Of a DNA stretch of 40,953 bases, positions 1-40,953 are shown in pieces. The stretch lies in sequence record OQ507919.1; one strand, written 5' to 3'. Numbering within the stretch: the first letter of the stretch is position 1; every line of letters starts with the position of its first letter. The notes under the pieces are model-generated. The model had not been told where the DNA came from. It was given only the letters and a program-made list of their open reading frames with translations, and made no database searches. Made by a program: the position numbers and the translations under genes. The stretch comes from Escherichia phage vB_Ec_Tarrare.

Positions 1-102
1 ACCATTGACTTGCACGATAAGGCTGAGGAACTGGTCAACGACTACGTAGAAACGCTTGAGCAAGAAGGTCTGCTGGATAACGACGAAGAAGACGAGGAGT
101 GA
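1..102 (+). CDS. 0.3: gene 0.3-like anti-restriction protein (Ocr-type DNA mimic), 3' fragment; 5' part lies beyond the window edge
   Basis: Frame 1 is open from the window edge to TGA at 100-102. The translation TIDLHDKAEELVNDYVETLEQEGLLDNDEEDEE is a highly acidic tail resembling the C-terminus of T7 Ocr as I recall it, and sits directly upstream of the 0.7 kinase. Confidence 0.6.
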   Translation, partial: TIDLHDKAEELVNDYVETLEQEGLLDNDEEDEE

Positions 103-105
103 TAG

Positions 106-141
106 CCTCAAGGTCATCCTGATGGGTGGCCTTTATGATTA
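106..141 (+). promoter_or_regulatory. RNase III-type processing hairpin (R0.5-like)
   Basis: cctcaaggtcatcctgatgggtggcctttatgatta; the imperfect stem aaggtcatcc / ggtggcctt and the flanking ctcaagg ... cctttatgatta recur at seven other intergenic positions in the window. Confidence 0.5.
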
Positions 142-175
142 TCACTTAATACACTTTCTCAAAGGAATCATAAAG

Positions 176-1294
176 ATGAACCCAATGACCATCTCTGCTC
201 GTGTAGCCACCATCCAGAATCTGCCTATCTGTGAACTTGATAAGCGTCAAGGTCTTCTGGTAGCACTGGCGGCTGACATCGTGAACCACGAGACTGAGAA
301 CGGGAAACTAACGCAAGCCGAAGGTAACAACGCTCTCGAATCCATGCCATACTGGACAACTCTCAACGAGTACATGCGAGGCGCTGGATTCATTAAGCTG
401 GGTAACGGTCACTTCTCTGCTGCGTATCGTCACCACTTGTTGCCTCAGAAGGTCATCAAGGTTGGCTTTAAGAAAGAGGATTCAGGTGCAGCTTATGCGG
501 CCTTCTGCCGTATGCACCAAGGCAAGCAAGGCATCCCTACCATCCATGACATTCAACGTCACGCTGGCTGCTACACAGTGGTTCTTGATGAACTCGAAGC
601 ACTACCTCAGGACTATTGGGGTGATGTGGACGACAACCATGAAGTGTACGAACAGTTCGACATGGTGCGTGATGTAATCAACTACGAAGAATCACGAGAA
701 TGCTTTGGTAGTGAACTGATGGAAGACCTATACACTACCGCTAAGTCAATCCGCAAGTTCTTTGAGGGAATCGCTCGTTTCGATATGCACTCAGGTAACG
801 CGATGATGGATAAACACGGTAACTTGGTCATTACAGACCCTGTGTCTTTCAGCGCTGACGACGCACTACCTCAGGAAGACTTCATGGTAGACCCTGATGA
901 ACTCCTAAAGGAAATCGAACTGATCGCTGAGCGCCGCATGATTGAGCGCTGCAAGGCTCGCAAAGCTAAGCGTGACCCTAACGGTGAGTTCCGTAGAGGT
1001 CTGAAAGTACGCGCTAAGCGTAAGAAAGCGGCTGATAAGTGGGTTAAACATCTTGAGAATGAAATGCGTAAACGCCGCTTGGACGATAAGGCAGAACGTA
1101 GAGTCGAGAAGCGCGCTCGTCAGTGGTTCGGTACTTCAATTTGGCAAGCTCAGTGGCTGAATAACTTGGTAGGTGACTTCAAGGTTATCGAAGAACGCGC
1201 TGCGGCTGCGATGATGGTTCACGATGCGGTAGCTATCCAAGCTGGTCAAGCGCTGCATGTAGACAAAATTCTTGACGATATGTTCCAAGGCTGA
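176..1294 (+). CDS. 0.7: gene 0.7 protein kinase / host transcription shut-off protein
   Basis: 373 aa from the ATG at 176 (SD agga upstream; the ORF-track start at 56 is a TTG inside the upstream hairpin). MNPMTISARVATIQNLPICELDKRQG ... GFKKEDSGAAYAAFCRMHQG matches the T7 gp0.7 N-terminal kinase domain as recalled. Confidence 0.9.
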   Translation: MNPMTISARVATIQNLPICELDKRQGLLVALAADIVNHETENGKLTQAEGNNALESMPYWTTLNEYMRGAGFIKLGNGHFSAAYRHHLLPQKVIKVGFKKEDSGAAYAAFCRMHQGKQGIPTIHDIQRHAGCYTVVLDELEALPQDYWGDVDDNHEVYEQFDMVRDVINYEESRECFGSELMEDLYTTAKSIRKFFEGIARFDMHSGNAMMDKHGNLVITDPVSFSADDALPQEDFMVDPDELLKEIELIAERRMIERCKARKAKRDPNGEFRRGLKVRAKRKKAADKWVKHLENEMRKRRLDDKAERRVEKRARQWFGTSIWQAQWLNNLVGDFKVIEERAAAAMMVHDAVAIQAGQALHVDKILDDMFQG

Positions 1295-1303
1295 TAGTCT
1301 TAT

Positions 1304-1337
1304 CTTACAGGTCGCTCCTAATGAGTGGCCTGAATAG
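1304..1337 (+). promoter_or_regulatory. RNase III-type hairpin upstream of gene 1 (R1-like)
   Basis: cttacaggtcgctcctaatgagtggcctgaatag; stem aggtcgctc / gagtggcct, same architecture as the other processing sites. Confidence 0.4.
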
Positions 1338-1368
1338 ATACGATTCACTAACCCAAACGAGGCACTAA

Positions 1369-4023
1369 ATGAACGCAGTAATCAACGTACAAAAGAACGA
1401 CTTTTCTGACATTGAACTGGCTGTAATCCCTTTCAACACACTGGCAGATCACTATGGTGAGAAGCTGGCTCGTGAACAGTTAGCACTTGAGCATGAGAGC
1501 TATGAGTTAGGCGAAAAGCGTTTCCTGAAAATGTTGGAGCGTCAAGTTCAGAACGGTGAACTGGCTGACAACGCTGCGGCTAAACCTCTGGTCGCTACTC
1601 TGCTGCCTAAGATGACCGCTCGTGTTAACGAATGGTTCGAAGAAGTTAAGGCTAAGCGTGGCAAGCGTCCTGTGGCCTTTCAGTTCCTGCAAACTGTGAA
1701 GCCTGAGGCTATCGCGTACATCTCTATCAAGTGCGCACTGTCTTCCCTGACTACCTCTGACAACGTGGCTGTACAAGGTGTGGCTGCTGTGATTGGCAAG
1801 GCTATCGAAGACGAAGCACGTTTCGGTCGTATCCGTGACCTAGAAGCGAAGCACTTCAAGAAGAACGTAGAGGAACAACTGAACAAGCGTGTAGGCCAAG
1901 TGTACAAGAAAGCATTCATGCAGGTTGTGGAAGCTGACATGCTCTCTAAGGGTCTGCTGGGTGGCGAAGCGTGGTCTTCATGGCACAAAGAAGACACTAT
2001 GCACGTAGGTATTCGTTGCATTGAGATGCTGATCGAGTCTACTGGTCTGGTTGTTGTTGAACGTCAAAACGCTGGCAACGCTGCGGCTGACTCTGAGGTA
2101 GTCTCTCTGGCTGATGAATACGCTGACATTATCAGCAAGCGCGCTGGTGCTCTGGCTGGTATCGCTCCAATGTTCCAACCTTGTGTAGTCCCTCCTAAGC
2201 CTTGGACGGGTATCACTGGTGGCGGCTATTGGGCTAACGGTCGTCGTCCTCTGGCTCTGGTGCGTACTCACAGCAAGAAAGCTCTGATGCGCTACGAAGA
2301 TGTTTACATGCCAGAAGTTTACAAGGCGATCAACCTTGCGCAGAATACCGCTTGGAAAATCAACAAGAAGGTACTGGCGGTAGCCAACGAGGTCACTAAG
2401 TGGGCTAACTGTCCGGTAGAGGATGTTCCGGCTATCGAACGTGAAGAGATGCCAATCAAGCCAGAAGACATTGACACTAACCCTGATGCACTGAAAGCGT
2501 GGAAGAAAGCGGCCTCCGCAATCTACCGTAAGGACAAGGCTCGCAAGTCTCGTCGCATTAGCTTAGAGTTCATGCTGGCTCAGGCCAACAAGTTCGCAAA
2601 CCACAAGGCGATCTGGTTCCCTTACAACATGGACTGGCGCGGACGTGTTTATGCGGTCTCTATGTTTAACCCGCAAGGTAACGACATGACCAAAGGTCTG
2701 TTAACGCTGGCTAAAGGCAAGCCAATCGGTAAGGAAGGTTTCTACTGGCTGAAAATCCACGGTGCTAACTGCGCTGGTGTTGACAAGGTTCCATTCCCTG
2801 AGCGTATCGCGTTCATTGAGAACAACCACGAGAACATTATGGCAAGCGCTAAAGACCCATTGAACAACACTTGGTGGGCTGAGCAGGATAGTCCTTTCTG
2901 CTTCCTAGCGTTCTGCTTTGAGTATGCAGGTGTGCAACATCACGGCCTGTCTTACAACTGCTCGTTACCTCTGGCTTTCGACGGGTCTTGCTCTGGTATT
3001 CAGCACTTCTCCGCTATGCTCCGTGACGAAATCGGTGGTCGTGCGGTTAACCTGCTGCCAAGCGAAACCGTTCAGGACATCTACGGTATCGTCGCTAAGA
3101 AAGTAAACGAAATCTTACAGCGTGACGTTATCAACGGTACAGAGAACGAACTGGTAACGACTGTAGACAAAGTGACAGGAGAAATCACAGAGAAAACTAA
3201 ACTAGGCACTAAGGAACTGGCGGGTCAGTGGCTGGCTTACGGTGTGAACCGTGGGGTAACTAAGCGCTCCGTTATGACTCTGGCTTATGGCTCCAAGGAG
3301 TTCGGTTTCCGTCAACAAGTGCTCGAAGACACCATTCAGCCAGCTATCGACTCCGGCAAGGGCTTGATGTTCACACAGCCTAACCAAGCTGCTGGGTACA
3401 TGGCGAAGCTGATTTGGGACTCTGTAAGCGTGACCGTGGTTGCTGCTGTAGAGGCTATGAAGTGGCTGCAAAGCGCTGCTAAGCTATTGGCTGCTGAGGT
3501 TAAAGACAAGAAGACTGGCGAAATCCTACGTAACCGTTGCGCGGTACATTGGGTAACTCCTGATGGCTTCCCTGTGTGGCAGGAGTACCGTAAGCCTGTA
3601 CAGACTCGCTTGAACTTGATGTTCCTTGGTCAGTTCCGTCTACAGCCAACTATCAACACAAACAAAGATAGCGGCATTGATGCACACAAACAGGAATCTG
3701 GTATCGCTCCTAACTTCGTTCACTCACAGGACGGTAGCCACCTGCGCAAAACTGTAGTGTGGGCTAACGAGAAGTACGGTATCGAGTCTTTCGCACTGAT
3801 TCATGACTCCTTCGGTACTATCCCTGCTGACGCTGGGAACCTGTTCAAAGCTGTACGTGAGACAATGGTAGATACCTACGAGTCTAACGATGTTCTGGCA
3901 GACTTCTATGACCAGTTTGCTGACCAGTTGCACGAGTCACAGTTGGATTCTATGCCTGTTCTGCCTTCTAAGGGCAACCTGAACCTACAGGACATCCTTA
4001 AGTCTGACTTCGCTTTTGCTTGA
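1369..4023 (+). CDS. 1: single-subunit DNA-directed RNA polymerase (T7 RNAP family)
   Basis: 884 aa; collinear with T7 RNAP, including the MNAVINVQKNDFSDIELAVIPFNTLADHYGE N-terminus and the C-terminal ...HESQLDSMPVLPSKGNLNLQDILKSDFAFA. Confidence 0.98.
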   Translation: MNAVINVQKNDFSDIELAVIPFNTLADHYGEKLAREQLALEHESYELGEKRFLKMLERQVQNGELADNAAAKPLVATLLPKMTARVNEWFEEVKAKRGKRPVAFQFLQTVKPEAIAYISIKCALSSLTTSDNVAVQGVAAVIGKAIEDEARFGRIRDLEAKHFKKNVEEQLNKRVGQVYKKAFMQVVEADMLSKGLLGGEAWSSWHKEDTMHVGIRCIEMLIESTGLVVVERQNAGNAAADSEVVSLADEYADIISKRAGALAGIAPMFQPCVVPPKPWTGITGGGYWANGRRPLALVRTHSKKALMRYEDVYMPEVYKAINLAQNTAWKINKKVLAVANEVTKWANCPVEDVPAIEREEMPIKPEDIDTNPDALKAWKKAASAIYRKDKARKSRRISLEFMLAQANKFANHKAIWFPYNMDWRGRVYAVSMFNPQGNDMTKGLLTLAKGKPIGKEGFYWLKIHGANCAGVDKVPFPERIAFIENNHENIMASAKDPLNNTWWAEQDSPFCFLAFCFEYAGVQHHGLSYNCSLPLAFDGSCSGIQHFSAMLRDEIGGRAVNLLPSETVQDIYGIVAKKVNEILQRDVINGTENELVTTVDKVTGEITEKTKLGTKELAGQWLAYGVNRGVTKRSVMTLAYGSKEFGFRQQVLEDTIQPAIDSGKGLMFTQPNQAAGYMAKLIWDSVSVTVVAAVEAMKWLQSAAKLLAAEVKDKKTGEILRNRCAVHWVTPDGFPVWQEYRKPVQTRLNLMFLGQFRLQPTINTNKDSGIDAHKQESGIAPNFVHSQDGSHLRKTVVWANEKYGIESFALIHDSFGTIPADAGNLFKAVRETMVDTYESNDVLADFYDQFADQLHESQLDSMPVLPSKGNLNLQDILKSDFAFA

Positions 4024-4028
4024 TGAAT

Positions 4029-4051
4029 TAATACGACTCACTATTGAGGAG
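4029..4051 (+). promoter_or_regulatory. phage RNAP promoter (phi1.1A-like)
   Basis: taatacgactcactattgaggag; T7 -17 to -1 consensus except T at -1. Confidence 0.8.
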
Positions 4052-4055
4052 TGAT

Positions 4056-4078
4056 TAATACGACTCACTAATGGGAAA
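4056..4078 (+). promoter_or_regulatory. phage RNAP promoter (phi1.1B-like)
   Basis: taatacgactcactaatgggaaa, in tandem 27 bp downstream of the first promoter. Confidence 0.8.
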
Positions 4079-4176
4079 CCTTAAGGGTCTTAGAGATTTA
4101 ACTTTAAGACCTTTAAGTTCTAATTTAAGATTTAATTTAAGATTACTAAGAGATTAACTTTAAGGAGACTTTAAGT
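4079..4176 (+). other. AT-rich region downstream of tandem promoters; candidate primary replication origin and leader of gene 1.1
   Basis: About 100 bp of low-GC sequence with reiterated tttaag / aatttaag / aactttaag units immediately after phi1.1A/B. In T7 the primary origin occupies this position. Confidence 0.4.
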
Positions 4177-4314
4177 ATGCGTAATTTTGAGAAAACTACT
4201 CGTAGCAAAGCACGTAACTGGACTTACGAAGAAGTCTACGGTAACAAAGAAGGTCGCAAGTTTAACAAGACTAAGCGTGACCGTTCTCATAAACGCAATT
4301 GGGAGGCTCAATAA
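4177..4314 (+). CDS. 1.1: gene 1.1 small basic protein
   Basis: 45 aa, MRNFEKTTRSKARNWTYEEVYGNKEGRKFNKTKRDRSHKRNWEAQ; close match to T7 gp1.1 as recalled; SD aaggag upstream. Too short for the ORF track. Confidence 0.8.
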   Translation: MRNFEKTTRSKARNWTYEEVYGNKEGRKFNKTKRDRSHKRNWEAQ

Positions 4315-4571
4315 TGGGACGTCTATACAGTGGAAACCTAAACGCATTCAAAGGTGCTTGCAATCGTCTCTATCAGATGGACTTTGCGGTAATCGTCAAT
4401 GAGTTCCACGATGCAATGTACCGTCAAGAATGCATGAAGGTACGCATAGAAGACCGAGCAGGGAACATAATCATACAGGACACCTTCTGTCACTATGACG
4501 TAGACGTCTTGTACAACACAGCCACCGCTTGGTTGAACGGTATGGCTGACCAGTTACAACACTGGAAGTAA
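4314..4571 (+). CDS. 1.2: gene 1.2 protein (inhibitor of host dGTP triphosphohydrolase)
   Basis: 85 aa from the ATG at 4314, overlapping the 1.1 stop (taATGg). MGRLYSGNL...QLQHWK matches T7 gp1.2 in length and sequence. Confidence 0.85.
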   Translation: MGRLYSGNLNAFKGACNRLYQMDFAVIVNEFHDAMYRQECMKVRIEDRAGNIIIQDTFCHYDVDVLYNTATAWLNGMADQLQHWK

Positions 4572-4591
4572 TTGAACTCACTATCGGGAGA
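4569..4591 (+). promoter_or_regulatory. phage RNAP promoter, divergent (phi1.3-like)
   Basis: taattgaactcactatcgggaga; the only candidate with C rather than T at -1 and with a weak -12 to -10 region. Confidence 0.55.
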
Positions 4592-4594
4592 ATG

Positions 4595-4622
4595 CTTAAG
4601 GTCGCTCACTGAGTGGCCTTAG
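4595..4622 (+). promoter_or_regulatory. RNase III-type hairpin (R1.3-like)
   Basis: cttaaggtcgctcactgagtggccttag; stem aaggtcgctcac / gagtggcctt. Confidence 0.5.
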
Positions 4623-4651
4623 TCGTTTAACCCTAACAGGAGACAATCATT

Positions 4652-5671
4652 ATGACTATCAAGACTAACCCATTCAAAGCTGTGTCTTTCGTAGAATCTG
4701 CCGTTAAGAAGGCTCTGGACAACGCTGGGTATCTTATCGCTGACGTTAAGTATGATGGTGTACGCGGTAACATTCTGGTCGATAACGTTTCAAATGCGCG
4801 CTGGCTCTCTCGTGTTTCTAAACCGATTCCGGCACTATCGCACTTGGACGGGTTCGACTCCCGCTGGCAGCGCCTACTGCGTGATGACCGATGCTTCTAC
4901 CCCGATGGCTTTATGCTCGATGGCGAGCTAATGGTCAAGGGCGTGGACTTCAACACTGGCTCCGGCCTACTTCGCACGAAGAACGTTAAGAAGAAGAACG
5001 AGCTACACGCTATCTATCACGATGGCGAAATGACAGACAAACTGTTCCGTCTGAACTCTAAGTTCCTTAGTGTTCGACTCTACGCAATCCTACCGATTCA
5101 CATTGTGGAATCAGGTGAGGACTTCGACGTTATGACATGCCTCATGCAAGAACACGTTAAGTATATGCTGCCTCTGCTGCGGGAATACTTTCCTGAAATC
5201 GAATGGCAAGCGGCTGAGTCTTACGAAGTGTATGACATGGTAGAACTCACTAAGCTGTACGAGAAGAAACGCGAAGAAGGTCATGAAGGTCTTATCGTTA
5301 AAGACCCATTAGGTCACTACCGTCGAGGCAAGAAGTCCGGCTGGTGGAAAATGAAGCCTGAGAACGAGGCAGACGGTATCATTCAAGGTGTTGTGTGGGG
5401 TACTGAGGGTTTAGCTAATGAAGGCAAAGTGATTGGATTTGAAGTGCTTCTAGAGAGTGGTCGCGTAGTTAACGCTTGCAACATCTCACGCGCTTTAATG
5501 GACGAGTTCACTAGCACGGTTAATACCGCTGCGGCTAAACACGAGGATGCTCCTTACATTGGGTGGGCTTGTCAGATTAGCTACATGGAAGAGACACCTG
5601 ATGGCTCTCTGCGTCACCCTTCCTTCGTTATGTTCCGTGGAACCGAAGATAACCCTACCGAAAAGATGTAA
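4652..5671 (+). CDS. 1.3: ATP-dependent DNA ligase
   Basis: 339 aa; carries the adenylation motif ADVKYDGVRG (KxDG) and is collinear with T7 ligase. Confidence 0.95.
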   Translation: MTIKTNPFKAVSFVESAVKKALDNAGYLIADVKYDGVRGNILVDNVSNARWLSRVSKPIPALSHLDGFDSRWQRLLRDDRCFYPDGFMLDGELMVKGVDFNTGSGLLRTKNVKKKNELHAIYHDGEMTDKLFRLNSKFLSVRLYAILPIHIVESGEDFDVMTCLMQEHVKYMLPLLREYFPEIEWQAAESYEVYDMVELTKLYEKKREEGHEGLIVKDPLGHYRRGKKSGWWKMKPENEADGIIQGVVWGTEGLANEGKVIGFEVLLESGRVVNACNISRALMDEFTSTVNTAAAKHEDAPYIGWACQISYMEETPDGSLRHPSFVMFRGTEDNPTEKM

Positions 5672-5678
5672 TACCCAA

Positions 5679-5708
5679 TGGCTCACCGAAAGGTGGGCCT
5701 TTTGCGTT
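5679..5708 (+). terminator. early (host RNAP) terminator TE-like hairpin plus U-tract
   Basis: ggctcaccgaaaggtgggcc followed by ttttgcgttt, immediately after the ligase stop, which is the position of TE in T7. Confidence 0.6.
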
Positions 5709-5709
5709 T

Positions 5710-5732
5710 CAATTCAACTCACTAATGGAGGA
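5710..5732 (+). promoter_or_regulatory. class II-type phage RNAP promoter
   Basis: caattcaactcactaatggagga; shares the recurring core aactcactaatggagga, whose +1 to +6 ggagga also serves as SD for the ATG 4 nt downstream. Confidence 0.5.
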
Positions 5733-5736
5733 CATT

Positions 5737-5940
5737 ATGGACTTACTGAATCCAGCTAACCCGCTCAATATGGTAAACCCTGCGTCACCTTGGTATCACG
5801 TATGGAACTCTGTACCTGAGGAATCACACACAGTGGTTACTGAACTTACCGCTGGAGAATCTTTCATTATCTACGGTATCGTAGGAGTGTTCTGCCTGAT
5901 GATCGCAGGTCTACTCTGGCTGATGCTAAGCGATATTTAA
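5737..5940 (+). CDS. small hypothetical membrane protein (gene 1.4/1.5-region ORF)
   Basis: 67 aa from the ATG at 5737 (the ORF-track start at 5725 lies inside the promoter). The C-terminal stretch FIIYGIVGVFCLMIAGLLWLML is a predicted transmembrane helix. Confidence 0.6.
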   Translation: MDLLNPANPLNMVNPASPWYHVWNSVPEESHTVVTELTAGESFIIYGIVGVFCLMIAGLLWLMLSDI

Positions 5941-5960
5941 TTAAACTCACTAATGGAGGA
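5938..5960 (+). promoter_or_regulatory. class II-type phage RNAP promoter
   Basis: taattaaactcactaatggagga. Confidence 0.6.
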
Positions 5961-5964
5961 CACA

Positions 5965-6048
5965 ATGACTTTCCTGATTATCATCATCACGATCGCTACG
6001 ATCTTTGTGTGCCTTAGCGACGACAATCATCCCGATGGTCATGCTTAA
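5965..6048 (+). CDS. 1.5: gene 1.5-like micro-protein
   Basis: 27 aa, MTFLIIIITIATIFVCLSDDNHPDGHA; hydrophobic N-terminus and a ...SDD..PDGHA tail as in T7 gp1.5 as recalled. Not in the ORF track because under 60 aa. Confidence 0.6.
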   Translation: MTFLIIIITIATIFVCLSDDNHPDGHA

Positions 6049-6068
6049 TAGAACTCACTAATGGAGGA
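6046..6068 (+). promoter_or_regulatory. class II-type phage RNAP promoter
   Basis: taatagaactcactaatggagga. Confidence 0.6.
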
Positions 6069-6072
6069 CAAT

Positions 6073-6333
6073 ATGTTTCGCTTACATTTCAACAAAAGCA
6101 TTAAGATGTTCACAGTTCGCCGCCAAGACCGCTCAATTGTATGCGCGAGCGAACGTCGAGCTAAACTTCCTATTCTTGGTAGTACAATACCTTTGGCACC
6201 TAGCGTCCACATCATCATCACTCGTGGTGACTTTCAGAAAGCAATAGACAAACAACGTCCGGTTCTTAGTGTGGCAGTGACCCGCTTCCCGTTCGTCCGT
6301 CTGTTAATCGAAAGAATCAAGGAGGTGTTCTGA
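6073..6333 (+). CDS. 1.6: gene 1.6-like protein
   Basis: 86 aa from the ATG at 6073; the conserved block [41 protein letters not shown] matches T7 gp1.6 as recalled. Confidence 0.7.
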
Positions 6334-6740
6334 TGGGACTGTTAGATGGTGCAGCGTGGGAAAAAGAAAACCCACCACTAAAAGGAGGCCATACATTGGC
6401 TTGCGATATTAACCGCTTTAATGACGATAGATACCCTTGTACCTGTAACGCTAATTCTTTCAAGGTTAGTGGTAAGAAAGCTACTGTAATCGCTACCGAC
6501 GAAATCGAAGGTGTACAGAAGCCGAGTCACTACTCGTTCTTTGATGGTATCGAAGCTATCGAGATCATTGCGCGGTCTATGACTCGCGAACAGTTTAAAG
6601 GGTACGTATTTGGGAATATTTTGAAGTACCGCTTACGTGCTGGTAAGAAATCCGAATTGGCATACGCTGAGAAAGACTTAGCGAAAGCCAACTTCTACAG
6701 TGAACTCTTTGAGAAACACAAGGATAAATGTTATGCATAA
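6333..6740 (+). CDS. 1.7: gene 1.7 nucleotide kinase homologue (short form)
   Basis: 135 aa. The N-terminus [15 protein letters not shown] and the C-terminal half [71 protein letters not shown] match T7 gp1.7, but a central segment of about 60 residues present in T7 is absent. Confidence 0.8.
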
Positions 6741-6879
6741 CTTCAAGTCTACCCCACCTTCTGACCATCTATCTGATAACTTCACAACGTGCTCAGAGTG
6801 GTGCCGTAAGATGTGGGAAGAAACGTTTGACGATGCGTACATCAAGTTGTATGAACTTTGGAAATCAAGAGGGCAATAA
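6733..6879 (+). CDS. 1.8: gene 1.8 protein
   Basis: 48 aa, [48 protein letters not shown]; near-identical to T7 gp1.8 as recalled; overlaps the 1.7 stop. Confidence 0.8.
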
Positions 6880-6880
6880 T

Positions 6881-7072
6881 ATGTCACATTTAGATACAGG
6901 TTCGCTTCGAGTGGACAACAAGAAGTTTTGGGCTACGGTAGAGACCGCTGCTCAATCGTTTGAGGTTCCTATCTACGCTACTGACTTAGACGATGCGTTA
7001 GAGCTAGCGGAGTGGCAGTATGTACCTGCTGGCTTCGAGGTCACTCGTATTCGTCCAGACGTTCGCGGTTAA
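6881..7072 (+). CDS. 2: gene 2 protein, inhibitor of host RNA polymerase
   Basis: 63 aa from the ATG at 6881, [63 protein letters not shown]; matches T7 gp2. The ORF-track start at 6728 is in frame but upstream of the real start. Confidence 0.85.
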
Positions 7073-11975: not shown

Positions 11976-14090
11976 ATGCTCGTTTCTGATATTGAAGCTA
12001 ACGGCCTCTTAGAGACCGTCACTAAGTTCCACTGCGGGGTAATCTATGACTACCAAACTGGTGAGTACATTAGCTATCGCCCTAGTGACTTCGGTGCGTA
12101 TCTGGATGCGCTTGAAGCCGAGGTAGCTAGAGGTGGGCTTATTGTGTTCCACAACGGGCACAAGTATGACGTCCCTGCGTTAACCAAACTGGCTAAGCTA
12201 CAGTTGAACCGTGAGTTCCATCTCCCTCGTGAGAACTGTGTGGACACCTTGGTGTTGTCTCGTTTGATTCATGCAAACTTGAAAGACACTGATATGGGTC
12301 TGTTACGTGCAGGTAAAATCCCTGGGAAAAGGTTCGGTTCCCATGCGTTGGAAGCTTGGGGCTACCGTCTAGGCGAGATGAAGGGTGAATACAAGGATGA
12401 CTTCAAGCGTATGCTGGAAGAGCAAGGCGAAGAGTATGTGGACGGCATGGAGTGGCTTGCGTTCAACGAAGAGATGATGGCTTATAACGTTCAAGACGTT
12501 GTGGTCACTAAGGCTCTCCTTGAGAAGCTACTGGCTGACAAACACTACTTCAAACCTGAGATTGACTTCACAGACGTCCATCATTCTACCTTCTGGATGG
12601 AAGCTATCGAGTCTATCGACGTTGAACATCGTGCTGCTTGGTTGCTGGCTAAGCAGGAGCGTAACGGTTTCCCATTCAACGCTAAGGCTATCGAAGACCT
12701 GTACGTAGAGTTGGCTACTCGTCGCTCTGAGTTGCTCATGAAGTTAACCGATACGTTCGGCTCTTGGTATCAACCTAAAGGTGGTACAGAGATGTTCTGT
12801 CACCCTAGGACTGGTAAGCCTCTGCCGAAGTATCCACGCATTAAGACCCCAAAGGTCGGTGGTATCTTCAAGAAGCCTAAGAACAAAGCTCAGCGTGAAG
12901 GTCGTGAACCTTGTGAGTTAGACACTCGTGAGTACGTGGCTGGTGCTCCGTACACTCCTGTAGAGCACGTTGTGTTTAACCCTTCAAGTCGTGACCACAT
13001 CCAGAAGAAACTTCAAGAAGCTGGATGGGTGCCAACTAAGTTCACCGATAAGGGTGCCCCTGTGGTGGACGATGAGGTGCTAGAAGGTGTTACTGTAGAT
13101 GACCCTGTGAAGCAATCCGCTATTGACCTGATTAAAGAGTACCTGATGATTCAGAAGCGAATCGGACAGGCTGCCGAGGGTGACAAAGCGTGGCTTCGCT
13201 ACGTACAAGAGGATGGAAAGATTCATGGTTCTGTTAACCCTAATGGGGCTGTTACCGGACGTGCTACACATGCGTTCCCAAACCTCGCACAGATTCCTTC
13301 CGTTCGTGCTGCTTATGGAGAGCAGTGCCGTAGCGCTTTTGGTGCTGAACATCATCTGGATGGTCTAACTGGTAAGCCTTGGGTTCAGGCTGGCATCGAC
13401 GCCTCAGGTCTGGAGTTGCGCTGCTTGGCTCACTTCATGGCTCGCTTCGATAACGGTGAGTACGCTGATGAAATCCTCAACGGTGATATTCACACTAAGA
13501 ACCAGATGGCTGCTGAGTTACCTACTCGTGATAACGCTAAGACCTTCATCTACGGTTTCCTTTATGGTGCTGGCGATGAGAAGATTGGTCAAATCGTTGG
13601 TGCTGGTAAGGAACGTGGTAAGGAACTCAAGAAGAAATTCTTAGAGAACACTCCGGCTATCGCTGCTCTCCGTGAGTCAATCCAACAGACGCTTGTTGAG
13701 TCCTCTCAATGGGTAGCTGGTGAACAGCAAGTCAAGTGGAAACGCCGTTGGATTAAAGGTCTGGATGGTCGTAAGGTTCACGTTCGTAGTCCTCATGCTG
13801 CCTTGAATACTCTGCTGCAATCTGCTGGTGCTCTTATCTGCAAACTGTGGATTATCAAGACCGAAGAGATGCTCGTAGAGAAAGGCTTGAAGCATGGCTG
13901 GGATGGTGACTTTGCGTACATGGCATGGGTACACGATGAAATTCAGGTAGCTGCCCGTACCGAAGAGATCGCTAAGGTGGTCGTAGAGACTGCTCAGGAA
14001 GCTATGCGCTGGGTAGGAGACCACTGGAACTTCCGTTGTCAATTGGACACCGAAGGTAAGATTGGCCCGAACTGGGCTGTATGTCATTAA
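11976..14090 (+). CDS. 5: DNA polymerase (family A, 3'-5' exonuclease plus polymerase, thioredoxin-binding type)
   Basis: 704 aa, same length as T7 gp5; MLVSDIEANGLLETVTKFHCGVIYDY (exo I motif DIEANG) and C-terminal ...IGPNWAVCH. Confidence 0.98.
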   Translation: MLVSDIEANGLLETVTKFHCGVIYDYQTGEYISYRPSDFGAYLDALEAEVARGGLIVFHNGHKYDVPALTKLAKLQLNREFHLPRENCVDTLVLSRLIHANLKDTDMGLLRAGKIPGKRFGSHALEAWGYRLGEMKGEYKDDFKRMLEEQGEEYVDGMEWLAFNEEMMAYNVQDVVVTKALLEKLLADKHYFKPEIDFTDVHHSTFWMEAIESIDVEHRAAWLLAKQERNGFPFNAKAIEDLYVELATRRSELLMKLTDTFGSWYQPKGGTEMFCHPRTGKPLPKYPRIKTPKVGGIFKKPKNKAQREGREPCELDTREYVAGAPYTPVEHVVFNPSSRDHIQKKLQEAGWVPTKFTDKGAPVVDDEVLEGVTVDDPVKQSAIDLIKEYLMIQKRIGQAAEGDKAWLRYVQEDGKIHGSVNPNGAVTGRATHAFPNLAQIPSVRAAYGEQCRSAFGAEHHLDGLTGKPWVQAGIDASGLELRCLAHFMARFDNGEYADEILNGDIHTKNQMAAELPTRDNAKTFIYGFLYGAGDEKIGQIVGAGKERGKELKKKFLENTPAIAALRESIQQTLVESSQWVAGEQQVKWKRRWIKGLDGRKVHVRSPHAALNTLLQSAGALICKLWIIKTEEMLVEKGLKHGWDGDFAYMAWVHDEIQVAARTEEIAKVVVETAQEAMRWVGDHWNFRCQLDTEGKIGPNWAVCH

Positions 14091-14109: not shown

Positions 14110-14409
14110 ATGGCTATCACTAAGCGTTTCAATGTATCTTTCGATGTAACCGCTGTACTGCATACAGAAGACCAGAACGAGATGGAGCGAGACCTTATCG
14201 CTTTGTGTAAGGCTGTAGGCAGTGGTAAGATTGAGCCAACACCTGTTCAGAAAGAAGTTATCGTACAGTTACTGACACATGGTATGGAAGGCGCTATGAG
14301 CTTTGTGGTTCGCGAGGCTCTACGTAAGACGGTCAAAGAAGCTTGCCTGAACGAGTTCGATGAGGAAGACTTCAAGTTCTCTCCTGCAACCGTAACGGAG
14401 GTGCGCTAA
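14110..14409 (+). CDS. 5.5: gene 5.5 protein (H-NS-binding protein family)
   Basis: 99 aa from the ATG at 14110 (SD aaggag); MAITKRFNVSFDVTA...EEDFKFSPATVTEVR matches T7 gp5.5. Confidence 0.8.
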   Translation: MAITKRFNVSFDVTAVLHTEDQNEMERDLIALCKAVGSGKIEPTPVQKEVIVQLLTHGMEGAMSFVVREALRKTVKEACLNEFDEEDFKFSPATVTEVR

Positions 14410-15785: not shown

Positions 15786-15840
15786 CTCAAGGCCCTTATT
15801 TAATACGACTCACTATTGGGAGATAGGGGCCTTTATGATT
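15786..15840 (+). promoter_or_regulatory. RNase III-type hairpin (R6.5-like) with promoter in its loop
   Basis: ctcaaggccc ... ggggcctttatgatt; the stem arms aaggccc / ggggcctt flank the phi6.5 promoter. Confidence 0.5.
15801..15823 (+). promoter_or_regulatory. phage RNAP promoter (phi6.5)
   Basis: taatacgactcactattgggaga. Confidence 0.9.
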
Positions 15841-16769: not shown

Positions 16770-17081
16770 ATGGGTAAGAAAATCAAAAAGGCCGTTAAGC
16801 GTGTAACCAAGTCTGTTAAGAAGGCAGTAAAACAGGTAGGTCGTCCACTGGAGAAAGTCGGTAAAGCCGCTATCGGTGGTCTGGCTGGTGGTGCGGGTGG
16901 CGCTGTAGAGGTTGTACAGCCTGAGCCTGCCGCTCCTGCTGCTGCTCTGGTTGACGTTCCTGATAAGCAGGTTGAGACCGATGATGCTGCTGAGACTGAA
17001 AGCGGTCGCCGTAAGGCTCGTGCAGGTGGTAAGAAGTCTCTGAGTGTTGCTCGTAGCTCAGGTGGAGGTATAAACATATGA
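16770..17081 (+). CDS. 7.3: gene 7.3 protein (tail/adsorption-associated)
   Basis: 103 aa, MGKKIKKAVKRVTKSVKK ... RKARAGGKKSLSVARSSGGGINI; matches T7 gp7.3. Confidence 0.85.
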   Translation: MGKKIKKAVKRVTKSVKKAVKQVGRPLEKVGKAAIGGLAGGAGGAVEVVQPEPAAPAAALVDVPDKQVETDDAAETESGRRKARAGGKKSLSVARSSGGGINI

Positions 17082-17479
17082 CAGATTGCATCCTTCACAC
17101 TGGTTGTACAACAAAAGGCGGTTATGGACTGACACACCTCAATGGTAAGACTATGTTAGCCCATAGGGTTGCTTACATCAAGGCGAAGGGTGCGGTACCA
17201 GATGGCATGGTCATCATGCACACATGCGATACTCCGTTATGCGTGAATCCTGAGCATTTGAAAGCTGGAACCCAAAGGGAGAACAGGATTGATTGTGTTA
17301 CCAAGGGTAGAGCCAATCCCGCCAAAGGAGAGAAGCACTACGGAGCAAGACTTACAGAGGACATAGTTCGAGAGATTCGAACATCCTCCCTAACTAACAC
17401 GGAGCTAGCTAAGGTCTATGGAATACCTAGACGAACTATCAGCGATGCTCGCCGTGGTAAGACATGGAGGCATATCTAA
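17078..17479 (+). CDS. 7.7: HNH endonuclease-like protein (gene 7.7)
   Basis: 133 aa; HTCDTPLCVNPEHL is an HNH core, followed by a C-terminal helix-turn-helix-like segment; matches T7 gp7.7 (…GKTWRHI). Confidence 0.85.
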   Translation: MTDCILHTGCTTKGGYGLTHLNGKTMLAHRVAYIKAKGAVPDGMVIMHTCDTPLCVNPEHLKAGTQRENRIDCVTKGRANPAKGEKHYGARLTEDIVREIRTSSLTNTELAKVYGIPRRTISDARRGKTWRHI

Positions 17480-35299: not shown

Positions 35300-36139
35300 A
35301 TGGCCCTACACGAAGTCAACCTGTGGAATTTCAATTCCCGCACACATTCGTCTCTCGACGTTGGAGCGCCTTACGGTGGCCTCTACTCTGGACGCATAGA
35401 CTTACCTGAAAGTTACCGAAAGTCTAAGATGTTCAAGGTTAGAGTTTCTGGAACACACGCTCTAGAGACCTACGCTAGCTATTCTGCTATGCTTACAGGA
35501 ATCGGAGGAACGTCGGTGTCAAACCTAAATGGTAGAGAAGCGATCATTGAGTTTAACACATCGTCCTCAACAAACGGGTTGCGAGGCATCTACTCCGTAG
35601 AGGGCGTGTTTGTTAGGGATTGGCATCCAGACGAAGCGTTGACAAAAGGTGCCGCCGAGATGTTCATAAAGCCGCATGGTGTAGACGAGTACGTTTGGAC
35701 TGGTTCTCAGTCTGTAGGTAACGGCTCAGAGTTAAACCTATTGTCCCTAAACGGGTTCTCTACCGATGTTGCCACTGGAGCCACTACCATTAACGCTGCG
35801 TCTCTTGTGGTGCTTCCTGCGGAGGTGAAGAGTAGAGGGCTGATCATTTCTGTAATCCTAGATGGCACTTATGACCAACAAGGGCCACATGAGATGAAGG
35901 TTCAGATACGAAGCGCTGATGGTAAGACGTTGCAACAATCTAGCCCATTGTATGTTCTGGACAAGAACGTCAAGAAGCTTACCGCAACATTTGCAGACTA
36001 CACCCTTGGTGTGTATGACGAAAGTAGTACCACTGGATTTAAGCTTGTATTTATCAATGATAGTACATCCAATATGTCACTGACTGGTGTACGAATCGTT
36101 GTTCAAAATATCTCTAATCCAGACTTCACACGTTCTTAA
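35300..36139 (+). CDS. hypothetical protein, no T7 counterpart (first gene of a two-gene late-region insertion)
   Basis: 279 aa ORF; SD aaggag 7 nt upstream of the ATG, which sits 1 nt after the Rz stop. Rich in S/T/G/N/V and apparently beta-rich; no signal peptide, transmembrane helix or catalytic motif recognised by eye. Confidence 0.8.
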   Translation: MALHEVNLWNFNSRTHSSLDVGAPYGGLYSGRIDLPESYRKSKMFKVRVSGTHALETYASYSAMLTGIGGTSVSNLNGREAIIEFNTSSSTNGLRGIYSVEGVFVRDWHPDEALTKGAAEMFIKPHGVDEYVWTGSQSVGNGSELNLLSLNGFSTDVATGATTINAASLVVLPAEVKSRGLIISVILDGTYDQQGPHEMKVQIRSADGKTLQQSSPLYVLDKNVKKLTATFADYTLGVYDESSTTGFKLVFINDSTSNMSLTGVRIVVQNISNPDFTRS

Positions 36140-36154: not shown

Positions 36155-37267
36155 ATGTTAGTTACTCGAACGGCAACTTACACCGATTGGATATTCATGG
36201 CTGCTCACGCAAACGAGAGGGTCGATGACATTGGTCAAGGTCTCTTAGAGGGTCATATTTATTTCCGTTATGCCTATGACATGCTGAACGATGGTGACGA
36301 GGTAGTACGAGAGGTATCACATGTACATCTTAGCGATGGGTCAACATACCCTCTAGGAGAAGGAGTGTCCTCCGAAAAGATAGACATCACGTACCACGGT
36401 CTCACTAGTGATGGTAGCGTATACCTTGAGGTTAATGGACATAAGGGAATTGGTGTTAGTAGCATTACTCGTACCCTGACCATTCAATATGACGATGGGA
36501 AGGTTCCTGTTCTGGACACTGACCAACTCAAAGGGATTCTTTCAGAACTTCATGACAGCCTTGAGGCTAGTATGATTAATACCGCAAACGCTGTCAAAGA
36601 GGAACTGCGAGACGAGTTGGAAACCAAGGTGCTGGACGCCAAGGAGTCCTGCAACGAGGCTACCGAGGCTGTTAACACCGAGTTGACCGCCAAGATCGCA
36701 AATGAGAGTGGTCGCATTGATAGCCTAACGAGTACCCTTGTGACTGTTCAGGGTAACTTGGATACTACCATGAAGCGCGTTGGTAAAATCTCTCCCAATA
36801 TGGGTAAGTGGTCTTTCGGTCGATACACCATCAACTCGAAGCAGACCAACAACTTACTGGCTGCTGCGCCTACAGCGTTGGCGCCGGAAGGGTCTATCTT
36901 CACATATGATGATACCAACAAGGTCTTTAAGATGTCTGGAGGTGCTGCCCCAACAGACAGGATTCTGCGGGTTACGTTCACTACAGGGATTGACACGTTG
37001 AGTGCTGACTACCGAGGATACTTATCGTTCATGCTGCGAAACTCCAGTGGTGGAGTCTTGGCTAGCGACATGAGGTTCCTAAACATGGATGCTGGTCTTA
37101 CCCAACAACTGAGCGCCATACAGTTCAGCCTTGAGCTATACTTAGAGGCGTCTAAAGGTCATCCAGTATACAACTCAGGTATCCAGTTAGCTTTCCACAA
37201 CAGTGCTAACACGGCTCTTGCCATACTGTCCGGTGGTGTTGCAAGCTTCACCTTACTGACAGCTTAA
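36155..37267 (+). CDS. hypothetical protein with central coiled-coil segment, no T7 counterpart (second gene of the insertion)
   Basis: 370 aa ORF; SD aaggag 8 nt upstream. Residues ~121-210 (DTDQLKGILSELHDSLEASMINTANAVKEELRDELETKVLDAKESCNEATEAVNTELTAKIANESGRIDSLTSTL) look alpha-helical with a heptad-like pattern, flanked by beta-rich N- and C-terminal regions. Confidence 0.8.
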   Translation: MLVTRTATYTDWIFMAAHANERVDDIGQGLLEGHIYFRYAYDMLNDGDEVVREVSHVHLSDGSTYPLGEGVSSEKIDITYHGLTSDGSVYLEVNGHKGIGVSSITRTLTIQYDDGKVPVLDTDQLKGILSELHDSLEASMINTANAVKEELRDELETKVLDAKESCNEATEAVNTELTAKIANESGRIDSLTSTLVTVQGNLDTTMKRVGKISPNMGKWSFGRYTINSKQTNNLLAAAPTALAPEGSIFTYDDTNKVFKMSGGAAPTDRILRVTFTTGIDTLSADYRGYLSFMLRNSSGGVLASDMRFLNMDAGLTQQLSAIQFSLELYLEASKGHPVYNSGIQLAFHNSANTALAILSGGVASFTLLTA

Positions 37268-40048: not shown

Positions 40049-40071
40049 TAATACAACTCACTATTGGGAGA
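40049..40071 (+). promoter_or_regulatory. phage RNAP promoter (phiOL-like)
   Basis: taatacaactcactattgggaga (A for G at -11), in the same relative place as T7 phiOL. Confidence 0.75.
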
Positions 40072-40104
40072 TACTCTATAGACTACTTAAAGAGGAGGGT
40101 TATC

Positions 40105-40548
40105 ATGTATCAAGGATTAACTATATCAAATGGTGTCTTAATAAGGGAGTCAACAGGTAAACCTTGTAAGACATTCTCTAACGGTAAATACCTAAGGATA
40201 AACCATAAAGGCCGGATGTATTACCTACACCGTGTCTTGTGGGAACTTACACACGGCTCAATACCTAAGGGTTACACTATAGACCATATAGACGGTAATC
40301 CTACAAATAACAATATTGACAACCTAAGGTTAGCCTCTTATAGTGAGAACAACATGAATCGGGTATCTACGGTAGACAATGGCCTACCTCAAGGTATCTA
40401 CTGGTGTAACTCTAAGAGTCGCTATGTGGCTCAGGTGGTAGCTCAAGGCGTTAAGAGAACAAAGACCTCAAAGAGCCTTGATGTAGTCACTGAGTGGGTT
40501 AAAGAGACACGAAAAGAGATTCATAAAGAATTTGCCATTAAGTGTTGA
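40105..40548 (+). CDS. HNH-AP2 homing endonuclease-like protein in the left-end leader
   Basis: 147 aa from the ATG at 40105 (SD aggagg); YTIDHIDGNPTNNNIDNLRLASYSENNMN is the HNH motif, with an AP2-like C-terminal half; paralogous in type to gene 3.8. T7 has no gene between phiOL and the A promoters as far as I recall. Confidence 0.8.
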   Translation: MYQGLTISNGVLIRESTGKPCKTFSNGKYLRINHKGRMYYLHRVLWELTHGSIPKGYTIDHIDGNPTNNNIDNLRLASYSENNMNRVSTVDNGLPQGIYWCNSKSRYVAQVVAQGVKRTKTSKSLDVVTEWVKETRKEIHKEFAIKC

Positions 40549-40573
40549 CAAGACGATTAAGTTAATACATAAT
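40545..40573 (+). promoter_or_regulatory. candidate host sigma70 early promoter
   Basis: TTGACA (40545-40550), 17 nt spacer, CATAAT (40568-40573). Confidence 0.4.
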
Positions 40574-40686: not shown

Positions 40687-40716
40687 TTGACAAGGTAACA
40701 CGAAGTAAGATAGAAT
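40687..40716 (+). promoter_or_regulatory. candidate host sigma70 early promoter (A-type)
   Basis: TTGACA (40687-40692), 18 nt spacer, TAGAAT (40711-40716); resembles the T7 A2/A3 promoters (TTGACA...GTAAGATA). Confidence 0.5.
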
Positions 40717-40837
40717 ACACCACAACAGCGAACGGGACGCTATACTCTCGGGTTCAGGACGGAGAGCCTTGTGTGGCTTGATGAAGTGGACATAGCGAAG
40801 GCACTAAACACCCAACGCTAAACACTTTGAATGATAA

Positions 40838-40873
40838 ACTCAAGGTCATCCTGATGGGTGGCCTTTATGATTA
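40838..40873 (+). promoter_or_regulatory. RNase III-type hairpin upstream of gene 0.3 (R0.3-like)
   Basis: actcaaggtcatcctgatgggtggcctttatgatta; 35 nt identical to the site at 107-141. Confidence 0.5.
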
Positions 40874-40902: not shown

Positions 40903-40953
40903 ATGGAACGCAACGCTAACGCTTACTACGAACTTCTGGATTCTGCGGTATAC
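40903..40953 (+). CDS. 0.3: gene 0.3-like protein, 5' fragment (continues beyond the window end)
   Basis: ATG at 40903 with SD gagga 9 nt upstream, open to the window edge (MERNANAYYELLDSAVY); first ORF after the early promoters and R0.3 hairpin, as for T7 0.3. Confidence 0.5.
   Translation, partial: MERNANAYYELLDSAVY

Follow-up and report, generated by a model that had tools for sequence, protein, structure and literature searches.

Does the early region of Escherichia phage vB_Ec_Tarrare carry a reduced, lineage-specific set of host-takeover genes, or does it only appear reduced because T7 is taken as the reference? The question stems from a sequence-only reading of record OQ507919.1, in which no genes were seen between 0.3 and 0.7, the 1.7 kinase gene appeared shortened and no gene of the size of 5.3 followed the DNA polymerase gene. 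The whole record, 40,953 nucleotides (nt) in length, is referred to as the window in the following. The comparisons presented here indicate that the region is very probably a normal T7-like cluster of class I and class II (early and DNA-metabolism) genes, which differs from T7 in the presence or absence of dispensable accessory cassettes that are polymorphic among these phages. The missing 0.4-0.6 and 5.3 genes and the short 1.7 are ordinary features, since most T7 relatives lack the corresponding sequences too.

Tarrare (Rindgevirus tarrare, Studiervirinae) is the sole species of the genus Rindgevirus. The open reading frame (ORF) listing and megablast searches identify it as a T7-like podophage in which every T7 core gene is present and T7 order is kept, with a nucleotide identity of approximately 79-81% to T7 and other Studiervirinae (megablast). 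The order 0.3, 0.7, 1, 1.1, 1.2, 1.3, 1.5, 1.6, 1.7, 1.8, continuing with 2, 2.5, 3, 3.5, 3.8, 4, 4.3, 4.5, 4.7, 5, 5.5, 5.7, 5.9 and 6, is common to Tarrare and T7 (NC_001604), with protein identities ranging from 46% to 96% for the shared genes, and their regulatory framework also agrees, with host promoters, hairpins of the RNase III type, phage promoters and a terminator 3' of the ligase gene in each. Genes 0.4, 0.5, 0.6, 1.4 and 5.3 of T7 have no counterpart in Tarrare, and gene 2.8, which T7 carries between 2.5 and 3, is missing from that position. The occurrence of these genes was counted in a collection of 50,697 phage records, the BLAST copy of which excludes the Tarrare record itself. 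Homologues of the 5.3 gene product (gp5.3) are present in 100 records, 57 of them with at least 95% identity to T7 gp5.3 (T7 and near-identical phages), and the 0.4-0.6 block is found at a coverage of at least 80% in 49 records, while a 1.7 homologue is found in 1268. The rarity of 5.3 and 0.4-0.6 compared with 1.7 indicates that T7 is a gene-rich outlier and not the standard.

The first of the differences concerns the junction of 0.3 and 0.7, where the sequence-only reading had placed 73 base pairs (bp) with a single RNase III hairpin in the position at which T7 was said to carry 0.4-0.6. Both statements are borne out: the 0.3 frame ends with a TGA at 100-102 and the ATG of 0.7 lies at 176, leaving a spacer of 73 nt (103-175), and the T7 reference does contain 0.4, 0.5 and 0.6A/B between 0.3 and 0.7. 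No match better than E=0.2 to T7 gp0.4, gp0.5 or gp0.6 was obtained by tblastn against the whole window. In the hairpin at 100-144, an internal loop separates a lower stem from a 10-bp upper stem (-18.9 kcal/mol, z=-2.1). Over 52 nt it shares 86.5% identity with T7 positions 1428-1479, which have the same fold and are located between T7 genes 0.4 and 0.5. This T7 hairpin is the R0.5 RNase III site, although RNase III sites are not annotated in the T7 record. The Tarrare element has its two stems, its internal loop and the conserved CTCAAGG...CCTTTATGATTA, and is a putative R0.5-type RNase III processing site; the 0.3 stop codon is embedded in GAGTGATAG, the same context as at the T7 hairpin.

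This layout is not particular to Tarrare. Stenotrophomonas phage IME15 (NC_019416) has the same junction, with an Ocr-like gene whose stop codon lies in GAGTGATAGCCTCAAGG, then the hairpin and then the start of 0.7; the spacer between the two genes is 73 nt long and homologous base-for-base to that of Tarrare, and related Aeromonas phages match the same stretch. IME15 further resembles Tarrare in having no gene between 5 and 5.5 and a short gp1.7 (102 amino acids, aa). It differs in carrying a gene annotated as 0.3 (an S-adenosylmethionine-dependent methyltransferase) and a 0.6A gene upstream of the Ocr-like gene, and its gp1.7 lacks the conserved N-terminus found in the Tarrare protein. The best nucleotide match to the 0.3-0.7 region of Tarrare (approximately 74%) is Yersinia phage vB_YenP_Rambo (OK042080), which likewise has a hairpin directly after Ocr, near-identical hairpins flanking Ocr, and neither 0.4 nor 5.3. 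Unlike in Tarrare, a single small ORF of 59 aa follows the hairpin before 0.7 in Rambo, its Ocr is full-length (119 aa), and its gp1.7 (174 aa) includes the centre. The sequence of the hairpin hardly varies between T7, Rambo, IME15 and Tarrare while the flanking genes differ, which is the pattern to be expected if the hairpins served as recombination boundaries for cassette exchange.

The second difference lies outside positions 102-7072, the segment with which the sequence-only reading was mainly concerned. As was stated there, no room is left for 5.3 before 5.5: the distance between the stop of gene 5 (14090) and the ATG of 5.5 (14110) is 19 nt, comparable sequences in Rambo and IME15 measure 16-24 nt, and T7 gp5.3 has no match in the whole window by tblastn (best E=1.5). 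T7 gp5.3 matches the PD-(D/E)XK nuclease family PF11645 (PDDEXK_5, E=1e-10) and phrog_5018. Two uncultured relatives from Logan assemblies are informative here, L015 (SRR12179530) and L013 (SRR13494284), with 89% and 84% nucleotide identity to Tarrare, respectively. L013 has an HNH_3 endonuclease gene between 5 and 5.5 (L013 15558-15863), and L015 has an HNH endonuclease gene in the 1.8 slot (L015 2662-3045), a difference from Tarrare in each case, so that small-gene slots are apparently reused by free-standing endonucleases. The junction of genes 5 and 5.5 appears to be an insertion slot for selfish free-standing endonuclease genes, and given the nuclease family of gp5.3 and the HNH gene of L013, the absence of 5.3 looks like that of a selfish endonuclease and not of a host-takeover gene. 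Elsewhere in the window, the closest counterpart of T7 gp2.8 (itself an HNH endonuclease) was found at 17078-17479, in the slot of gene 7.7 and not between 2.5 and 3; its product, an HNH endonuclease whose C-terminal region resembles a helix-turn-helix, is 39% identical to the T7 protein.

The third difference, in gene 1.7, had also been described correctly, as a homologue that retains both ends but not a central segment of about 60 residues. The protein has 135 aa and its T7 counterpart 196 aa; they can be aligned over the first ~44 and the last ~88 residues, and Tarrare has no equivalent of T7 residues ~45-108, which include the GCGILCSNVPCHLCP cysteine cluster. At the DNA level, 118 nt in Tarrare take the place of 301 nt in T7, which makes the gene shorter by 183 nt (61 codons). 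The first 84 nt of the gene are 90% identical to T7, and the conserved N-terminus includes DDRYP.TCN. The gene was deposited as coding for 114 aa, and the conserved N-terminus as well as the Logan gene call favour 135 aa. Located between 1.6 and 1.8, it matches DUF3310 (PF11753) with 77.8 bits (81.5 bits for T7, cut-off 24), and phrog_2585 "nucleotide kinase" with E=4e-50. The Cys/His motif near the N-terminus (6333-6470) reads H20...C24...C36-x-C38 with a 3-residue insertion in Tarrare, and C21-x2-C24...H33-x-C35 in T7. The lengths of other homologues form a continuous range (102 aa in IME15, 108 and 114 aa in the Logan relatives L013 and L015, 121 aa in Kvp1, 140 aa in FE44, 174 aa in Rambo), and it is in the centre that gp1.7 varies most from phage to phage. 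Closest in architecture are the gp1.7 of the Berlinvirus phages Kvp1, FE44 and P694, in which the MGLLDG...DDRYP.TC N-terminus is almost directly joined to the DUF3310 core and which are 71-74% identical to the Tarrare protein over aligned positions; their N-terminal motif is T7-like (CxxC...HxC), unlike the H..C...CxC motif with 3-aa insertion of Tarrare. No solved structure of gp1.7 was found. The short protein probably remains an active kinase of deoxythymidine and deoxyguanosine monophosphates (dTMP/dGMP), because it retains the whole DUF3310 core, to which some natural homologues are almost confined.

Whether these differences amount to streamlining is a separate matter, and taken as a whole the Tarrare genome shows no streamlining. 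At 40,953 bp, it is approximately 1.2 kb larger than that of T7 (counted with one copy of the terminal repeat removed), and it contains a 67-aa orphan gene with its own promoter in the 1.4 slot, within the very segment 102-7072 described as streamlined, an additional HNH gene and a pair of late orphan genes of about 2 kb. The C-terminus of the 67-aa product is hydrophobic and probably membrane-spanning; the protein has no homology to gp1.4 and no match in the phage collection, Pfam or PHROG, and its approximately 12 unnamed homologues all come from Logan assemblies, where they occupy the same slot of uncultured T7-like contigs (L013, L014 and L015). The two late genes, 35300-36139 (279 aa) and 36155-37267 (370 aa), are located between Rz (18.5) and the terminase gene (19), and neither of them is matched in Pfam or, by tblastn, in the 50,697 phage genomes; PADLOC gave no matches for the orphan genes. 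The 279-aa protein, annotated by the depositors as "putative hydrolase", has approximately 20 homologues, in Logan assemblies only, and a scan of IMG/VR with an alignment of this family returned no relative; its single-sequence AlphaFold model is all-beta and unusable, with a predicted local distance difference test (pLDDT) score of 38. The 370-aa protein has a central coiled-coil-like stretch and approximately 36 clusters in a representative library at 50% identity, and the matches obtained for it in the PDB were rejected as spurious. As a further observation, the HNH gene at 40105-40548 (147 aa, HNH_3 E=3e-20, 43% identical to T7 gp3.8) lies directly 3' of a phiOL-like phage promoter, in a segment (40049-40548) that separates the terminal-repeat region from the host promoters and for which T7 offers no corresponding gene. 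The gene includes a sigma-70-like site (40316-40344) that agrees with the consensus at 11 of 12 positions.

The idea of a streamlined set of host-takeover genes particular to this lineage is consequently upheld in one part only. The gene differences from T7 are real, and two of the missing genes fit the label, gp0.4 being an inhibitor of the division protein FtsZ and gp0.6 an inhibitor of the cytoskeletal protein MreB. Both proteins of T7 feature in the literature on phage inhibitors of FtsZ and MreB (PMC9372555, PMC5624674). What does not hold is the streamlining itself, the restriction to one lineage, since the layouts are common to other phages, and, probably, the place of 5.3 in the set, as its product matches a nuclease family.

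Judging from T7 biology, the host polymerase would transcribe 0.3 through 1.3 from the host promoters, RNase III would cut the early transcript at the hairpins, and the phage polymerase would take over from the phi1.1 promoters and transcribe the later genes. Accessory cassettes would be carried in slots bounded by conserved regulatory sequences, namely RNase III hairpins, phage promoters and overlapping stop/start codons. The slots for 0.4-0.6, 1.4, 2.8 and 5.3 are filled in T7 and empty or otherwise filled in Tarrare, as in most of the subfamily; the one after gene 5, for example, is empty in Tarrare, while T7 has a gene of the PD-(D/E)XK family there and a metagenomic relative an HNH gene. 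The short gp1.7 has the DUF3310 core, which bears most of the family conservation, and is without a variable Cys-rich linker that is missing from many natural homologues as well. Some points weigh against this explanation. The kinase activity of a gp1.7 without its centre is deduced from conservation, the view of 5.3 as the occupant of an endonuclease slot draws on a Pfam match and one relative, and the gp0.4 homologue of L013, together with a small ORF before 0.7, makes a secondary loss in the Tarrare lineage possible.

According to this last alternative, the region would be truly streamlined, having recently lost genes from a fuller ancestor (with Ocr, 0.4 and a small ORF before 0.7) through recombination at hairpins or short repeats. 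L013 has what such an ancestor would be expected to contain: its Ocr is full-length (115 aa), a homologue of gp0.4 (PF26807) is present, and the hairpin is followed by a small ORF that carries no annotation. Rambo, too, has its small ORF between hairpin and 0.7. L013, L015 and Tarrare have in common the orphan of the 1.4 slot and the shortness of gp1.7. A substrate for the event is also at hand: 0.3 is flanked by a 35-nt exact direct repeat (107-141 and 40839-40873), the only exact repeat of at least 31 nt in the window, and recombination between its two copies would excise 0.3. Studier and colleagues (1979) reportedly found that deletions in the T7 early region arise between short direct repeats. 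On the other side stands the occurrence of the same 73-nt junction in IME15 and the Aeromonas phages, which indicates that the layout is old and widespread and not a recent private deletion; moreover, no deletion scar was identified and the whole genome is larger than that of T7. A recent loss is therefore rather doubtful as the origin of the present arrangement, and it would in any case be compatible with the polymorphism of accessory cassettes that we favour.

The state of gene 0.3 (Ocr) itself gives rise to two further alternatives. The record is a circular permutation whose ends lie inside this gene, a point not raised in the sequence-only reading, with the terminal-repeat/concatemer-junction region internal, at approximately 39.5-40.0 kb. 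As the first gene after the host promoters, with an Ocr-type N-terminus and an acidic C-terminus, 0.3 has the position and the ends of an Ocr gene. Its first 13 aa are identical to those of the Ocr-like protein of Enterobacter phage vB_VIPECLMC06, and the ribosome-binding site and first 13 codons are of the K30/IME15 type (88-95% nucleotide identity). If the record ends are joined they read ...GCGGTATAC|ACCATTGAC..., which brings the two fragments into frame as a 50-aa product, from 17 and 33 codons compared with a normal length of 115-119. This product has no match to PF08684 (ocr) at E<=1, while the Ocr of the relative L013 gives E=1e-30; a complete Ocr domain of about 100 residues is not present in the record, which may reflect a gap in the record and not the phage. 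The exact 50-aa product is absent from a collection of 15 billion proteins and a homologue search with it returned nothing, as did exact-pattern scans for the first 41 nt of 0.3 (in IMG/VR) and for the 22-mers abutting each record end (in IMG/VR and the JGI metagenomes). Independent Logan contigs of Tarrare stop at the 35-nt hairpin repeat and do not span 0.3, so that the join is neither confirmed nor refuted by them. Either the deposited circle is closed, in which case approximately 67 residues have been deleted from Ocr in frame, or approximately 200 bp are missing from the record, and the two are roughly equally likely. If the circle were closed, with an Ocr remnant of 50 aa and no 0.4-0.6, Tarrare might have a minimal early set (0.7, 1, 1.1, 1.2 and 1.3) devoid of DNA-mimic anti-restriction, with anti-host and anti-defence roles falling to the lineage-specific orphans of 67, 279 and 370 aa, a scenario that we consider unlikely.

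The other alternative is an artefact of the assembly or the record, in which sequence between the repeats (the middle of 0.3, or small genes) was dropped and part of the apparent streamlining created. The splitting of 0.3 by the record ends, the identical hairpin repeats on either side of it and the failure of the joined product to match PF08684 would all agree with such a loss; the break of the Logan contigs at the hairpin repeat speaks neither for nor against it. Against an artefact, an independent Logan contig reproduces positions 829-6741 (5,913 bp) at 100% identity, which shows that 1.7 and the region from the ligase gene to 1.7 are not artefacts; the 0.3-0.7 junction has its base-for-base homologue in IME15, the layout from 5 to 5.5 is that of Rambo and IME15, and at most ~200 bp inside 0.3 are in question. 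An artefact is accordingly an improbable source of the differences from T7. Still less credible is the proposal of an adaptive escape, in which gp1.7 became short by losing a central Cys-rich surface seen by a host sensor (e.g. Avs5) but kept the kinase core, since, while T7 gp1.7 has been reported to activate the filamentation and NADase activity of EfAvs5 (PMC11897194) and the gp1.7 centre is the part that varies most across phages, that report does not map the sensed part of gp1.7 and nothing in the window bears on the idea.

The features on which the preferred explanation, that of a normal cluster with polymorphic accessory cassettes, was built are collected in Table 1.

Table 1. Genes and regulatory elements of the Tarrare early region and of the gene 5/5.5 junction, in the order of the T7 map (positions are those of the window).
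Feature	Position	Strand	Remarks
Early promoter, sigma-70 type	40545..40573	+	TTGACA, 17 nt, CATAAT; 11/12 consensus positions; equivalent to T7 A promoters
Second early promoter, sigma-70 type	40687..40716	+	TTGACA, 18 nt, TAGAAT
RNase III-type hairpin 5' of 0.3	40830..40872	+	R0.3 position; 35-nt exact repeat in common with hairpin 100-144
Gene 0.3 (Ocr), 5' fragment	40903..40953	+	17 codons (MERNANAYYELLDSAVY); runs off window end
Gene 0.3 (Ocr), 3' fragment	1..102	+	33 codons and TGA; T7-type acidic C-terminus
RNase III-type hairpin (putative)	100..144	+	Homologous to T7 1428-1479; sole structured element of spacer 103-175
Gene 0.7, protein kinase	176..1294	+	372 aa, full length; 46% identity to T7 residues 1-359; phrog_2828 over 1-372
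Hairpin 5' of gene 1	1297..1344	+	Predicted fold; at the position of the T7 R1 RNase III site
Gene 1, single-subunit RNA polymerase	1369..4023	+	884 aa; 88% identity to T7
Two phage promoters	4029..4074	+	phi1.1A and phi1.1B positions of T7
Gene 1.1	4177-4314	+	T7 homology
Gene 1.2	4314-4571	+	T7 homology
Gene 1.3, DNA ligase	4652..5671	+	339 aa
Intrinsic terminator	5680..5709	+	Directly 3' of ligase gene; position of T7 TE; end of early region
Phage promoter and 67-aa ORF	5710-5728; 5737-5940	+	T7 1.4 slot; directly after early terminator
Gene 1.5	5953-6048	+	T7 homology
Gene 1.6	6073-6333	+	T7 homology
Gene 1.7	6333..6740	+	135 aa; N-terminal ~44 aa conserved, C-terminal DUF3310 core, T7 residues ~45-108 absent
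Gene 1.8	6733-6879	+	T7 homology
Gene 2	6881-7072	+	T7 homology
Gene 5, DNA polymerase	11976..14090	+	704 aa; 93% identity to T7
Gene 5.5	14110..14409	+	99 aa; Pfam Phage_T7_55, E=3e-32

The 0.7 kinase, RNA polymerase, 1.1, 1.2 and ligase genes follow one another as in T7, which marks the region as a T7-like early cluster, and the regulatory signals that accompany such a cluster were identified by consensus matches: sigma-70 promoters lie upstream, the ligase gene is followed by a terminator, and phage promoters are present from 1.1 onward. Two strong host promoters were detected, compared with three in T7. The window contains 16 phage promoters, where 0.05 would be expected by chance. The strong ones, at 15801, 19093, 20137, 24493, 32227 and 39134, have the consensus TAATACGACTCACTATTGGGAGA, one base off the T7 consensus (TAATACGACTCACTATAGGGAGA), just before the GGGAGA start, with CACTATTGGGAGA in Tarrare and CACTATAGGGAGA in T7. 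The phage promoters upstream of 11 kb read CACTAATGG. No Rfam match was obtained in the 40,953-nt window, and a search of IMG/VR for close relatives with the 0.7 kinase returned two loci only, at 46-52% identity. Two longer reading frames were considered and rejected: the ORF at 6728-7072 is not a fusion of 1.8 and 2, as 1.8 is read in a different frame and the start of gene 2 lies at 6881, and the ORF at 56-1294 is not a longer 0.7, its extra length being due only to the absence of stop codons from the 0.7 frame across the hairpin.

The kind of variation described here is already known, and the genome is public and classified; the presence or absence of small dispensable genes is what is to be expected among T7 relatives, and carries little weight as a discovery. 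In practical terms, the break of 0.3 by the record ends is of consequence for restriction, BREX and other Ocr-sensitive defence assays with Tarrare, for which the intactness of Ocr matters. For the family, the comparison suggests that the junction of genes 5 and 5.5 behaves as a slot for free-standing endonuclease genes, and it makes T7 a poor default for what is to be regarded as normal gene content in its subfamily.

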